DNA of 64,000 nucleotides from a plasmid (GCF_056712565.1 NZ_JBWXXM010000002.1); one strand, 5' to 3'; counted from the first letter of the stretch, positions 17-5,570 are shown. The notes: generated by a model from the sequence alone, not told the origin. Numbers and translations: made by a program.

Positions 17-421
17 TTGAAACATAGCATATTAGAAAATGACAGAAACCTGTTGTACGTAGTTCGTCCTTCAGGAACGTGTTTGTTGCGTTGTGACAAA
101 TATTTCTATCCGAAATATTATCTTCGTTGCCGTGGAGATTATAAGTCATTCATATATGTCCATCTTGATCTACATAGTGGTGAAGCTAAAGAAATCACAT
201 GGGAGCAAGCAGACGATATGCTGTCTAGTCCAGGAAAACCCCCATTAAAAGGGAATCTTGGACGATTTGAGTATATAAAAGTTGTGGTTGAGGACCTTCG
301 TATTCGAGGTTACGCTGATTATCTTCCTGCGTATAATCTTGATGACCTTCGCCGTTTTGCCTTACAGGACGACCGCCCATCCCTTGTCAGATACATTGAC
401 AATGTCATGGCAACGGTCTGA
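17..421 (+). CDS. hypothetical protein, first gene of hairpin-punctuated AT-rich array
   Basis: ORF track; followed by perfect 8-bp inverted repeat CCCTGATG/CATCAGGG at 449..473; no recognisable motif. Confidence 0.4.
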   Translation: MKHSILENDRNLLYVVRPSGTCLLRCDKYFYPKYYLRCRGDYKSFIYVHLDLHSGEAKEITWEQADDMLSSPGKPPLKGNLGRFEYIKVVVEDLRIRGYADYLPAYNLDDLRRFALQDDRPSLVRYIDNVMATV

Positions 422-448
422 TTGATTGCTAATTGATTTACATATTTT

Positions 449-473
449 CCCTGATGGCCAACCTGCATCAGGG
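449..473 (+). repeat. GC-rich hairpin (8-bp stem, 9-nt loop) downstream of first array gene
   Basis: CCCTGATG gccaacctg CATCAGGG read directly; no T-run. Confidence 0.5.
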
Positions 474-499
474 AGGCCTCAATAACGAATGGAGGCTGT

Positions 500-1378
500 A
501 TGAAGTTAGCTACGGACCTGGTAAAAGCTATTTTGATTAGAAATGGCGTTGAACCAGTAAATATAAGCGAATCATCTAAGTTATCTTTGAAACAACCACT
601 GACAGAACTTAAATTCAGTTTATATTTGCGAACTGAGCATTTATCTCACTTCCTACCCGGTTATGTTTATTCTATAAAAGAATGTCCACTGTCATATGAC
701 ATCGGGATCGAAATTCAGAAAATCTTCGAAAGTTTACATTTGTTAAACGAAGAATTTGAATCCCTCGGTTTTGTTTCTGTATGGATAGAAATGCATCAAA
801 GCATTTTTGAACAAAGTCGGTTTAAGAAAAGTAACTTTACTTTTCGGGAGGAAGAGGTCGAGCTTGCTAAAGGGCTTGTTTGTTCTCACAATTCACAAAT
901 AAGTAATGCGGCTTATTTCTGGCTTCAGCACTTTGAGGAGTTTATGATTTATGTTCGTAATAAGCTTATCGACCTCTTTCGAGAGGCCTATGACCTGATC
1001 CTTGGAATGCAGCAAGTATTTTTCATTCGGGAAAAGGAAGAGCTGTTGAAAACTATAAGTTATGGCGATGAGCTGTATGAGGTGAAATTCATGGCGGCTG
1101 AGCTTTACTCTATCGAACAGAACTTAAAGTGTTCTGAATCGATAAGTACAAAATCTCAAGCTTCGGCATATATTAACCGCATCCGTGAGTTTGTGCGTTC
1201 GGGGTGGAGGCAGGGCTATATAGTCTGCCATCATAAGCGAAGTAATCAAATTTCATCATTGTCATTACCGATGTACTTGAAAGATACGTCAGGCCGGAGT
1301 GCTCGAAAGCGAGTAAAACGTCTTATATCTTCTACAGTTTGTGGTAGAAATAAAGATTTAGGTCTTACAGATTTTTAA
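500..1378 (+). CDS. hypothetical protein (292 aa), array member
   Basis: ORF with GGAGG RBS upstream of ATG 500; AT-rich; terminator follows. Confidence 0.55.
   Translation: MKLATDLVKAILIRNGVEPVNISESSKLSLKQPLTELKFSLYLRTEHLSHFLPGYVYSIKECPLSYDIGIEIQKIFESLHLLNEEFESLGFVSVWIEMHQSIFEQSRFKKSNFTFREEEVELAKGLVCSHNSQISNAAYFWLQHFEEFMIYVRNKLIDLFREAYDLILGMQQVFFIREKEELLKTISYGDELYEVKFMAAELYSIEQNLKCSESISTKSQASAYINRIREFVRSGWRQGYIVCHHKRSNQISSLSLPMYLKDTSGRSARKRVKRLISSTVCGRNKDLGLTDF
838..848 (+). repeat. AAAGTAACTTT motif copy 1 (inside gene 500..1378)
   Basis: exact 11-mer read in sequence. Confidence 0.6.
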
Positions 1379-1396
1379 TTAAATTATACCCATGTG

Positions 1397-1432
1397 GGGA
1401 TCACACCCCATATGGGAGTGATCCCTTTTTTT
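1397..1432 (+). terminator. rho-independent terminator
   Basis: GGGATCAC stem, 13-nt loop, GTGATCCC, then TTTTTTTATT. Confidence 0.6.
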
Positions 1433-1448
1433 ATTGAGAGAGGATCAC

Positions 1449-2384
1449 ATGAAAATTATCGAAAAAATCATTAATGCCTTTTTGGTTGTTCAACATAAAA
1501 AAATACAGGTTAAAAACATTACATTTTTAGACAATGGGCAGGGCATGTTCTCTGGTATGTCTTTTGATGCTGATGTTTCACTGGAGTTTATGTATGAATC
1601 AGCAAAAGCATATAGTTCTTGTTTCTGTGATATTCCCTTTCCAGGTTTTGAAGATGCAAATCTGGAGGAAATTACGAAATTTCAATTAGATGCTTTGAAG
1701 CAAAGAAAGAATCATTCTTTCTTTGTTAACCATTTGAGGTTTCCTATAGTTTTAAGGGAAGGGTGCAAAATCGAAAGAGGAGAAGTCTATTCAATTTCGA
1801 ATTGCACTTATAATAAAGAAAGATTGCAGTATCTTTTTTCTCAGGATATTTACGGTAAGTTGTATAATTCCTTAGAGAAAGAATTAAGCTCGTTTTTCTC
1901 ATTTATCAATGTTGAGGTGCACGAGTTGTTAAAAGATGCTGTATGCTTTGCATTAAAAATCCTGAATAAGATATCTTTGGATACACCTGAAAGACTTATT
2001 AAAGCTTTTAATTATCGTGACTGGTATTGTAGTTACGATGTTGAGCTTTTTAGGAAAGGCTTACCTGGTCATATTCTGGAAGAGCTCATTGCTCCAGATA
2101 TCTTACTTTCAGACCTTAACGGTTGTAGAAAAATACTTAGAAATGCAAAACGATTTCTAAATGGACATACACAAACCAATTGTGTTTATATTAAATATGA
2201 ATGGTGGTTGGGGCCTGTTGATACCTCACACTCAGCTAAGTTGATGTCTGACAAAGAAATTAATAACCGAAGTGACTTGAAGAATTTTTCAAAGGTCTTT
2301 TTCAAAGAGTGTTTAAGTTCTGGTAAGTCGGAATATGAAAACCATCTTAGTGAAAAAGAACATGCGCTTCGCTATAATTATTAA
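1449..2384 (+). CDS. hypothetical protein, array member
   Basis: ORF track 1434..2384 begins at TTG; first ATG at 1449 preceded by GAGAGGA; start chosen there. Confidence 0.5.
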   Translation: MKIIEKIINAFLVVQHKKIQVKNITFLDNGQGMFSGMSFDADVSLEFMYESAKAYSSCFCDIPFPGFEDANLEEITKFQLDALKQRKNHSFFVNHLRFPIVLREGCKIERGEVYSISNCTYNKERLQYLFSQDIYGKLYNSLEKELSSFFSFINVEVHELLKDAVCFALKILNKISLDTPERLIKAFNYRDWYCSYDVELFRKGLPGHILEELIAPDILLSDLNGCRKILRNAKRFLNGHTQTNCVYIKYEWWLGPVDTSHSAKLMSDKEINNRSDLKNFSKVFFKECLSSGKSEYENHLSEKEHALRYNY

Positions 2385-4378: not shown

Positions 4379-4398
4379 TCCTTTTGCTTCAGTCCAAA

Positions 4399-4409
4399 AA
4401 AGTAACTTT
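4399..4409 (+). repeat. AAAGTAACTTT motif copy 2 (intergenic)
   Basis: exact 11-mer. Confidence 0.6.
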
Positions 4410-4497
4410 GGTTGGCTGAAGACACTTGTCTATGACAATGTAAAATCTGTCGCTGGCATCTTCTTTTAGCTTAACCAAATTTTTATCTAACCCAGTG

Positions 4498-4512
4498 GGG
4501 AAGTCGCTTCCC
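4498..4512 (+). repeat. GC-rich hairpin in spacer, homologous to element at 3384..3410
   Basis: GGGAAG tcg CTTCCC; spacer 4379..4543 also holds motif copy at 4399. Confidence 0.45.
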
Positions 4513-4543
4513 TTCTGGGGCACTTCCTCTCAAATTCGAGGTA

Positions 4544-5506
4544 GTGTATATGACACATTCATCTGATGATAAAAACTATGTCCGAGCAGTTCTGAGTTAT
4601 CTTGGCATAGATTTTGATGAGGCGGATATAGTATTAAGTGTTTGCCATTGTCAAAGTGACGAGCTTTCTTTTACCTGTAATATCAAAGCTATTGAACTCA
4701 AGAATGTTGTTGATTTATATGTCGATAGTATCTCTGAGAATGAAATAGAAGCTTTAAACAGAGAATCTTTAAAATCGCGACTCTGTTACTTTCTTGAGGT
4801 GTTTGACGCAGTCTCTGGTCAGTACCTTGAAATTTCAGGAAAACACTTTGCAACTAGTCGTTTTGAATATGATGATGTTTGTAGTGAAGTTCTTAGCATG
4901 TCTAATGATGTTTCTCAGTCGAAAGGTTATGACCGGGATGAATATAACAGACTGATGCAGGTTGATGGTCAGGTTATGATTGCCCGTTTTGCTTTGCAAC
5001 AGTTCTGGGATACTCATTTTATTGGACTAATAACATTTGTATCTGAGTCTATAACATCGAGCCTCTATAAAGCTTATGAAACTTTTAGTGATATTAGTTT
5101 GGCTTGCTATAAACTGAGTGAATATTCTTATTCACGCTCTATCAACAGTGAATTGACCCTTAATATTTCACTTAAAGAAAATGACTTCTGTGAGGACCTA
5201 TCTGATTGCTATATGGAAGATGAGGCTTTACCTTCTGGTAGGGTAATTTCTCGACGCAACAATGACTCCATAATAAGTATTTATGAGAGCTATGCTGCGG
5301 CTTCTTATATTCCGATGATTGCATCTTTGGAAGTCGTTGATGAATACGGCGAAGTGGTTACTGACCTCTGCCATACCGTTTATGTTTCAGAGTTAACCGG
5401 TGGGCGGATTAAAATCCACGACCGTAATGACTTAGTATCTGAAGTTTTCGATAACCTAAGAAATTTAAATCTTGCAGTTGGAGATTCAGTTTCACAAGCT
5501 GCTTGA
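4544..5506 (+). CDS. hypothetical protein (320 aa), paralog of 3440..4378 product
   Basis: ORF; upstream GAGGTAGTGTAT; QVDGQVMIARFALQQF and C-terminal DRNDLVSEVFDNLRN align with previous gene. Confidence 0.55.
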   Translation: MYMTHSSDDKNYVRAVLSYLGIDFDEADIVLSVCHCQSDELSFTCNIKAIELKNVVDLYVDSISENEIEALNRESLKSRLCYFLEVFDAVSGQYLEISGKHFATSRFEYDDVCSEVLSMSNDVSQSKGYDRDEYNRLMQVDGQVMIARFALQQFWDTHFIGLITFVSESITSSLYKAYETFSDISLACYKLSEYSYSRSINSELTLNISLKENDFCEDLSDCYMEDEALPSGRVISRRNNDSIISIYESYAAASYIPMIASLEVVDEYGEVVTDLCHTVYVSELTGGRIKIHDRNDLVSEVFDNLRNLNLAVGDSVSQAA

Positions 5507-5545
5507 TTCTTTCCCTGATTTTGATTTTTTCTCACATACTCTTAT

Positions 5546-5570
5546 GGCACGGTTTCCGTGCCTTTTTTTT
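5546..5570 (+). terminator. rho-independent terminator ending the array
   Basis: GGCACGG tttc CCGTGCC followed by TTTTTTTT. Confidence 0.65.

Follow-up and report, generated by a model that had tools for sequence, protein, structure and literature searches.

A repeated two-hairpin RNA element, most likely a translational operator that is off by default, precedes most genes of an IncHI plasmid cluster

The window analysed here, a 64,000-nucleotide stretch of plasmid DNA (GCF_056712565.1, NZ_JBWXXM010000002.1), opens with an array of five plus-strand genes, g1-g5, and the subject of this report is the structured RNA element that lies directly before each of them. Positions 1-6000 of the window are IncHI2 plasmid backbone at 100% identity and match 1126 PLSDB records, 1113 of them at 99% identity or more; the array is identical across more than 1100 IncHI2 plasmids, and no phage match to positions 1-6000 was found. 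The earlier note on this DNA described six genes for ∼300-aa proteins of unknown kind, each followed by a GC-rich palindrome. The proteins belong to no known family, as it had stated, but the genes of this size number five: the first open reading frame (ORF) is the 3′ part of an unrelated 173-aa gene, g0. The true starts of g2 and g5 are ATG 1449 and ATG 4550 instead of TTG 1434 and GTG 4544. In pF1140-1, the plasmid used as reference, this region follows the Tra2 genes trhN and trhI (the latter annotated as a conjugal transfer helicase, not a relaxase). The array forms the distal end of a 13-kb plus-strand cluster that runs h1, h2, h3, AAA (AAA_5), h4, DUF3150, VWA, h5, toprim (domains DUF7146 and Toprim_3), g0 and g1-g5.

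The spacers before g1-g5 share an architecture of two adjacent hairpins. The first, P1, comprises 9-15 bp and carries a CCC/GGG clamp, and an AU-rich sequence lies directly 5′ of every P1. The second, P2, starts 0-4 nt later; its 3′ strand (segment C) supplies the next gene with its Shine-Dalgarno (SD) sequence, ending 0-9 nt before the AUG, and its 5′ strand (segment B) is an anti-SD. Segment A, composed of the 3′ end of the P1 5′ strand and the P1 loop, is a copy of C, and because of this B can pair with either A or C. The design is exemplified before h5, where A, B and C read GGGGCAAAAGG / CUUUUUGCUCC / GGAGCAAAA. Since P2 buries the SD, the default fold P1 + P2 would block translation initiation. 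The cost of opening the SD region is 8.4-13.1 kcal/mol, compared with 5.3±3.1 kcal/mol in a set of 71 other plasmid genes (p = 2e-4).

Inverted repeats were found at 448-456/466-474, 1397-1408/1414-1425, 2395-2409/2414-2428, 2405-2417/2421-2433 and 3393-3400/3404-3411, and RNA folding of the spacers adds hairpins at 1389-1416, 3379-3406 and 4491-4519. The two overlapping perfect stems reported at 2395-2433 are thus real, with lengths of 15 and 13 nt. The hairpins of the earlier note lie at or near all the positions that it gave, but each is only half of an element and is followed by a second hairpin covering the SD; the one at 5546 differs in kind, being a plain intrinsic terminator and the only one of these structures with the features of such a terminator. 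Compared with dinucleotide shuffles, the spacer folds have z scores of -3.1 to -6.9, and none of 200 shuffles equalled them. The pattern CCC..GGG..CCC..GGG occurs four times in the 64-kb window, at the junctions g1|g2 to g4|g5 in every case, against a shuffle mean of 0.002. Outside the window the fold is equally regular: the 46 distinct junction sequences, taken from 11 loci, without exception form P1 and, next to it, an SD-masking P2, including those of lineages whose array proteins are only ∼22-34% identical to those of the window. The design thus persists through complete sequence turnover. The coordinates are collected in Table 1.

Table 1. Genes, operators and other structured elements at the start of the window. 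Positions are window coordinates unless prefixed by L001; energies are those of the predicted folds, bits and E values are matches to the covariance model described in the text, and pLDDT and pTM are the predicted local distance difference test and the predicted template modelling score.
Feature	Position	Strand	Structure or product	Fold and model scores
g0 operator	L001 11837-11899, upstream of window	+	Own operator of g0	
g0, 3′ part	1-421	+	173-aa gene starting 101 nt before the window (L001 11900-12421), unrelated to g1-g5	
g1 operator	447-499	+	P1 448-456/466-474; P2 475-480/492-497, 3′ strand is SD GGAGGC; ATG 500	-23.2 kcal/mol, z -3.1; inverted repeat at P1; fold kept in orthologues
g1	500-1378	+	292 aa, family A	
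g2 operator	1387-1448	+	P1 1389-1399/1406-1416; P2 1418-1429/1436-1448 over SD GAGAGG to ATG 1449; alternative A:B hairpin 1397-1408/1414-1425, then T7	-36.3 kcal/mol, z -6.9; 60.9 bits
g2	1449-2384	+	311 aa, family B	AlphaFold pLDDT 83.5
g3 operator	2398-2452	+	P1 2398-2409/2414-2425; P2 2427-2435/2440-2449, CCCUCU pairs with AGAGGG (SD); alternative shifted hairpin 2405-2417/2421-2433	-31.8 kcal/mol, z -5.6; E 4.5e-5, absent from seed
g3	2453-3373	+	306 aa, family B	
g4 operator	3377-3439	+	P1 3379-3390/3396-3406; P2 3409-3418/3428-3437, CACUUCC pairs with GAGGUAGUG; ATG 3440	-27.7 kcal/mol, z -4.0; 61.2 bits
g4	3440-4378	+	312 aa, family C; no fold match in the PDB	AlphaFold pLDDT 91.4, pTM 0.85
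Palindrome AAAGTAACTTT	4399-4409	.	Within the long g4|g5 spacer; conserved in all lineages examined; in L008 it follows the last gene of the array	
g5 operator	4489-4549	+	P1 4491-4503/4507-4519; P2 4520-4529/4538-4547; ATG 4550	-32.4 kcal/mol, z -5.3; 58.4 bits
g5	4550-5506	+	318 aa, family C, very acidic	
Intrinsic terminator	5546-5570	+	GGCACGG-TTT-CCGTGCC (5546-5562), then T8; ends the g0-g5 unit; kept in IncHI1 and IncHI3	

Comparison of the spacers of IncHI1, IncHI2 and IncHI3 plasmids revealed three covarying segments in each. For example, GGGATCAC / GTGATCCC / GAGGATCAC-ATG in IncHI2 corresponds to GGGATTAC / GTAATCCC / GAGGATTAC-ATG in IncHI1, and before g2 segments A, B and C change together between plasmid groups (GGATCAC to GGATTAC). 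A plain MAFFT alignment of paralogous junctions gave a poor RNAalifold consensus because the helices are out of register. A covariance model (R1) was built from 18 junctions and its alignment used instead, with covariation counted on 33 distinct aligned plus-strand matches; this alignment also supports the idea, voiced in the earlier note, that the spacer elements are related to one another. For P1 + P2, 85% of cells were paired as against 74.5% after shuffling and the covariation was 0.379 as against 0.211 (reached by 0 of 500 shuffles; slid controls 0.09-0.16), with both sides changed in 12 of 19 pairs, counts that are biased upward by an alignment which the covariance model had fitted to P1 and P2. 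The alternative A:B helix, to which the alignment was not fitted and whose result is therefore less biased, had 78.5% of cells paired (70.5% shuffled) and a covariation of 0.294 (0.196 shuffled, again reached by 0 of 500; slid controls 0.12-0.18). The alternative RNA folds suggested earlier are therefore real and covarying.

The A:B pairing is also specific to each element. Cognate A:B duplexes have a mean energy of -10.6 kcal/mol, compared with -5.2±2.2 kcal/mol for non-cognate ones, and the mirror combination, the P1 3′ strand with C, showed no specific complementarity. Blocking the first 5-7 nt of P1 in silico raised the unpaired probability of the SD strand from 0.10 to 0.42, with 40% of the elements exceeding 0.5. 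In chimeras joining P1 and P2 of different elements the same block left the SD strand at a mean of 0.10, with none above 0.5 (p = 8e-27 versus cognate), indicating that each P1 is matched to its own P2. The effect was lost when the whole P1 5′ strand, including A, was blocked. Conversely, when the SD strand was held free, about half of the elements refolded to the shifted hairpin with B paired to A. The covariation of both folds and the difference between cognate and chimeric elements together support two pairings that exclude each other, with the SD free in one of them.

An explanation without any switch has to account for these matches. On that account the structures are static: P2 damps translation, P1 stabilises the ends left by RNase E cleavage in the AU-rich stretch that precedes it, and A:B has no function. 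It would fit the position of the AU-rich stretch, the inconsistent stop-to-P1 distances described below, and the facts that the default fold is far more stable than the alternative and that most elements fail to flip in silico. However, the A:B helix shows covariation even though the alignment had not been fitted to it, B is complementary specifically to its own A while the P1 3′ strand is unspecific for C, and the gap between cognate and chimeric elements is hard to explain without selection for strand exchange. We therefore consider static structures unlikely.

The structure appears to be selected in the sense RNA rather than in the DNA, since in 41 of 46 elements the plus-strand fold is 4.8 kcal/mol more stable than its complement, and 10% of the pairs are G-U. 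Palindromic elements, the cassette-like look of the array, a tyrosine recombinase gene 5 kb downstream and a g4 allele that was apparently exchanged with breakpoints near the spacers could all be taken to speak for an action at the DNA level, whether as REP/ERIC-like repeats (repetitive extragenic palindromes or enterobacterial repetitive intergenic consensus sequences), as integron attC sites or as single-strand hairpins in conjugative transfer. This explanation is largely refuted and scarcely credible, as the G-U pairs and the strand asymmetry indicate plus-strand RNA and P2 always involves the SD. In addition, the elements are not dispersed on the 204.5-kb plasmid, the recombinase gene lies beyond eight other genes, and the relaxase gene, presumably with the origin of transfer (oriT), is ∼85 kb away. 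Integron gene cassettes in particular were ruled out: no spacer holds a RYYYAAC/GTTRRRY core-site pair, and the gene order is fixed across IncHI1, IncHI2 and IncHI3.

The element is restricted to one cluster. A descriptor scan covering every ORF start and a search with model R1, both over the two strands of the whole 204.5-kb plasmid and accompanied by direct folding of the spacers, placed it only before h2, h3 (in a variant form), DUF3150, VWA, h5, g0 and g1-g5. Elements absent from the seed were recovered by the model before DUF3150 (41.9 bits, E 1e-9), g3 and VWA, and more weakly before h3. Weak model matches at L019 43295-43423 on the minus strand, ∼1 kb from a hok gene, were rejected as ordinary hairpins, one of them terminator-like. 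Whether the spacers were ordinary REP elements had been raised at the outset; on the plasmid they are confined to this single cluster (host chromosomes were not scanned). Like REP elements, bacterial interspersed mosaic elements (BIMEs), ERIC sequences and intrinsic terminators, they are GC-rich palindromes in intercistronic spacers of AT-rich DNA, but they differ in being confined to 13 kb, in register with the next start codon and built of stems unique to each junction. No match was obtained in Rfam 15, in which three chance-level hits of 21-28 bits (thresholds 53-85), none at an operator, were returned, and no description of the element was found in the literature on NgrC, DUF3150 and IncHI intergenic stem-loops. 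A different structure, a long nearly perfect hairpin of -37 to -43 kcal/mol, is located upstream of the toprim/DUF7146 gene (L001 ∼10300-10375, before the window); it is common to IncHI2 and pENVA and its form differs from that of the two-hairpin operators.

The Klebsiella pneumoniae IncHI1B/FIB plasmid pENVA, which lacks the array, carries the operator before h2, DUF3150, VWA, h5 and g0, although its DUF3150 protein is only 40% identical. Because the operator stands before non-paralogous genes and in this array-less plasmid, it is an old feature of the whole cluster. The proposed duplication of a unit of gene plus spacer accordingly did not hold up; the paralogues carry a cluster-wide operator, and the spacer was not duplicated along with each gene.

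Such a distribution might also be the work of a factor acting in trans, an RNA-binding protein or small RNA of plasmid or host that recognises either the A:B hairpin or the base of P1 with its conserved AACCC...GGG, and so sets about eleven operators together, perhaps timing expression after derepression or entry into a new cell. Elements before about eleven cistrons of one co-regulated cluster and nowhere else on the plasmid would suit it, as would the nearly invariant CCC/GGG orientation at the P1 base (C-G in 33 of 33 sequences at columns 4-35) and the presence in the cluster of small proteins of unknown function, h2, h4 and h5. Yet none of the cluster's proteins showed an RNA-binding domain, no complementary small RNA came to light, none having been searched for, and the orientation constraint can be explained by the A≈C design alone. 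We regard a trans-acting factor as distinctly unlikely.

Published microarrays of plasmid R27 bear on when these genes are transcribed. The cluster is induced 3.6-23-fold at 25 °C; in an htdA mutant at 25 °C its ORFs are derepressed 19-116-fold, and it is silent at 37 °C (Gibert et al., PMC7366339). It is co-regulated with the transfer genes, and these data assign the array proteins to a conjugation-associated regulon that is active at low temperature and repressed by HtdA (PMC7366339). Judged by the gene order of NC_002305, R0204 to R0002 would correspond to toprim through h1, and R0203 to R0198 to g0 through the N-terminal fragment of g5, which in R27 is split by IS2 (L023 11238-13530). The htdA mutant signals from g0 to g5 are 5679, 2740, 3378, 6669, 3245 and 3955, with no stepwise loss (PMC7366339).

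The level signals argue against termination at the junctions. The palindromes had been proposed earlier as individual terminators of the upstream genes, and they could in principle end or meter transcription after each gene with P1 as the anti-terminator of an A:B hairpin and U-run. Such a hairpin is indeed followed by U7 at g1|g2, U8 before DUF3150 and U6 before VWA, and L001 15393-15411 was flagged as terminator-like by a consensus scan. Nevertheless, U-runs are absent or broken at g2|g3 and g4|g5, the minimum free energy fold at the junctions is P1 + P2 rather than a terminator hairpin, and terminators of standard form exist elsewhere, after the toprim gene and after g5. Terminators or attenuators are thus very improbable, and the palindromes belong instead to the 5′ control region of the downstream gene.

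The transcription data also speak to temperature. SD sequestration is the hallmark of an RNA thermometer and the cluster is thermoregulated, which invites the idea that SD hairpins melt as the temperature changes and are tied to the temperature-sensitive conjugation of IncHI plasmids. The elements do not resemble the ROSE or fourU types, in which the SD is covered by a weak hairpin with mismatches that melts at 37-42 °C: the SD is masked, but opening is costly (7-15 kcal/mol for the P2 stems), and the presence of mRNA at 25 °C but not at 37 °C is the opposite of what a heat-opened device needs. The P2 stems are far more stable than RNA thermometers are known to be. At low temperature, moreover, the default fold with its larger number of base pairs would be favoured further. 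We consider a thermometer highly improbable.

The elements are thus most likely translational operators that are off by default. Beyond this, we hold it to be an even call that every GC-rich palindrome, as hairpin P1, forms one half of an RNA operator that acts in cis on the downstream gene and works as a two-state switch. By default P1 and P2 would form, the SD would be buried and translation initiation blocked; in the alternative state B would swap from C to A, giving the shifted hairpin and a free SD. We infer that the switch operates in vivo and that the flip starts from the 5′ side of P1. The most economical and plausible trigger would be ribosomes that finish on the upstream cistron, or scan on from it, and open the 5′ side of P1, with the decoy strand A relaying this opening over ∼50 nt to the next SD in a form of translational coupling.

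Several points weigh against this reading, in addition to the upward bias of the P1 + P2 counts. The nearest-neighbour model favours the OFF fold over the ON fold by 3-15 kcal/mol, and ∼60% of the elements stay unflipped when the 5′ end of P1 is blocked. Only about half of the junctions have P1 within 2-16 nt of the upstream stop codon; at the others the gap is 22-270 nt (100-150 nt for g5, 210-270 nt for g0). Ribosome footprints lead to the estimate that a terminating ribosome unwinds only ∼7 nt past the stop codon. Since many of the distances exceed this reach, a termination-coupled trigger is not universal. A conserved leader ORF was not found across the junctions, nor was any in the long g5 and g0 spacers. 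Finally, the assignment of the R27 ORFs to these genes comes from gene order only.

Two other devices were rejected. A leader peptide beginning at an AUG or GUG in the P1 3′ strand is contradicted by the lack of conservation of that codon (UAG, CAG or CGG at the same position). An H-type pseudoknot between the P1 loop and B fails on geometry, with 0-1 nt to span an 11-bp stem; more generally, with P1 and B only 0-4 nt apart, a pseudoknot in these operators looks sterically unlikely. In most lineages P1 of the g0 operator is preceded, at a distance of 9-12 nt, by the end of a mini-ORF of 4-5 codons (ATGGTTATTCCATAA, L001 11815-11830, before the window), which may serve as a leader or simply belong to a conserved palindrome.

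The logic of anti-anti-SD, anti-SD and SD has precedents in erm/cat attenuators, in the expression platforms of riboswitches and in leader-peptide coupling on plasmids. In the ermC/cat translational attenuators four segments pair alternatively, and a ribosome on the 5′ segment frees the SD. The operators resemble these leaders in having two adjacent hairpins, the second of which buries the SD and start codon, in the exclusive pairing of the first hairpin with the anti-SD strand, and in a ribosome on the 5′ segment as trigger, which here is only proposed. They differ in that a conserved leader peptide or stalling motif is absent, in that the anti-SD pairs with the 5′ strand and loop of the first hairpin (segments 1 and 3) rather than with its 3′ strand (segments 2 and 3), and in that about eleven copies occupy one cluster where ermC/cat have a single leader. 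In structure-mediated coupling, as in R1 tap-repA, ColIb-P9 repY-repZ, MS2 coat-replicase and rpmI-rplT, the upstream ribosome itself opens the sequestering helix, unless a pseudoknot is formed instead. The likeness includes a downstream SD locked in RNA structure, upstream ribosomes proposed as openers and a plasmid setting; the difference is that the SD lies ∼45-60 nt past the stop codon here, and a built-in copy of the SD strand would act as relay. With translational riboswitch platforms the operators share the three-strand logic (A as anti-anti-SD, B as anti-SD, C as SD), but they have no aptamer, P1 being a plain hairpin, and belong to no Rfam family.

What is unusual is that a single co-regulated cluster contains about eleven copies, no two built of the same stem sequences, that the decoy is embedded in a plain hairpin with neither aptamer nor leader peptide, and that the design has outlasted complete sequence turnover. 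A repeated, covarying switch before nearly every cistron points to a post-transcriptional layer of control over plasmid genes that is apparently undescribed, in plasmids that rank among the chief vehicles of multidrug, mcr-1 and tellurite resistance in Salmonella, E. coli and Enterobacter. Each plasmid supplies about eleven natural versions of a single design, alike in architecture but different in stem sequence, and other lineages supply dozens more; the elements could be used to study the tuning of the exchange between anti-SD, SD and decoy strands. It is possible, though doubtful, that they form an operon-wide chain of about eleven strand-exchange relays, in which each ribosome-binding site stays locked until upstream ribosomes or a dedicated factor act 5′ of its own operator. 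Such a chain would amount to a sequential, domino-like translation programme for conjugation-linked low-temperature genes, including a five-fold expanded family.

By sequence and structure prediction the proteins of that family are old diverged paralogues, grouped in three remotely related families that share one predicted fold. As had been observed, the paralogy of g4 and g5 is clear (BLASTP: 27% identity, E 7e-37) and a conserved GAGGTAGTGTA is present before both of their start codons; the g2-g3 link is weak by BLASTP. Clustering of array proteins from nine lineages yielded families A (g1), B (g2 and g3) and C (g4 and g5), and profile-profile comparison joined A to B (96.5% probability, E 8e-10), A to C (E 6e-5) and B to C (E 4e-4) in collinear, nearly full-length alignments. 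Consistently, the AlphaFold models of g4 and g2 have an identical order of secondary-structure elements up to about residue 250. The pairwise, profile and structural comparisons that the earlier note had called for thus bear out diverged paralogues with a shared order of elements. g5 is acidic in all lineages checked (net charge -30, isoelectric point 4.3), g4 has a net charge of -14 and g1-g3 are near neutral.

Searches of the array proteins in Pfam, NCBIfam, PHROGs and PADLOC returned nothing, and the predicted fold had no match among solved structures. In the AlphaFold database (AFDB50), Foldseek matched both the g4 and g2 models to one common set of ∼300-aa proteins of Enterobacterales, Vibrio and others that are uncharacterised or named NgrC, at E values of 1e-9 to 1e-4 for g4 and more weakly, up to ∼0.09, for g2 (TM, the template modelling score, ∼0.3-0.65; 9-16% identity); sequence similarity to this set is undetectable. 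An NgrC-like ORF occurs on the MOBH plasmid pAQU1 beside CobS-like and VWA genes (PMC4036041). The array proteins define a family with a confidently predicted fold that lacks a solved counterpart. An exhaustive profile search of 1.84 billion representatives retrieved only 41 proteins, and every full-length member whose contig was fetched occupies one backbone position, between toprim-g0 and h6...Ter. A 2078-aa surface adhesin of Gram-positive type (P0045) has nine repeats that match the C-terminal part of the g4/g5 profile (E 8e-10); the match is probably compositional or repeat-driven.

The array genes have dN/dS ratios (nonsynonymous to synonymous substitution rates) of 0.14-0.29, equal to those of their neighbours, and on this evidence they are real genes under purifying selection, accessory to the backbone. 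The earlier picture of a polymorphic cassette array is not borne out, given these ratios, the fixed order of the five genes in IncHI1, IncHI2 and IncHI3 and the absence of a toxin/immunity signature or PADLOC match. The array reads A-B-B-C-C in IncHI1, IncHI2, IncHI3 and L014, A-B-C-C in L012, B-B-C-C in L011/L016 and A-C in L008; decayed remnants are found in Photorhabdus (L007) and none in pENVA. Copy number (0, 2, 4 or 5) thus varies between deep lineages only. In the Photorhabdus tasmaniensis contig (L007 7131-9741) only fragments of g4 and g5 are left, and two operator-like elements are still recognisable (7434-7497 and 8715-8777).

Many IncHI2 plasmids have insertions of IS1, IS3, IS21 or IS903 inside the region of positions 1-6000, and the array evidently tolerates such disruption by insertion sequences. 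The g4 allele of some IncHI2-like contigs (L004/L006 6001-6939) differs from window positions 3440-4378 with a dS of 0.56, 85% aa identity and a dN/dS of 0.14; the genes around it have dS values of 0.01-0.09, and the flanking operators are nearly identical. The pattern suggests that recombination replaced the allele, the breakpoints falling close to the conserved spacers.

Leading-region genes for anti-defence or establishment were ruled out as an identity for the cluster, since mobI and the MobH relaxase gene are at 135-139 kb of the record, ∼85 kb from the array at 48-53 kb. Downstream of g5 the plus strand continues with h6-h10 and a Tus-like gene, and further on lie an integrase gene and hha. 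The rest of the window is unrelated to the operators: at ∼13000-31000 (L001 25456-30000, L017 1-13737) it holds the tellurite-resistance ter/TerY-phosphatase-kinase island and, further on, a HipA toxin-antitoxin pair, HNH endonucleases, a cytosine methyltransferase and IS1.

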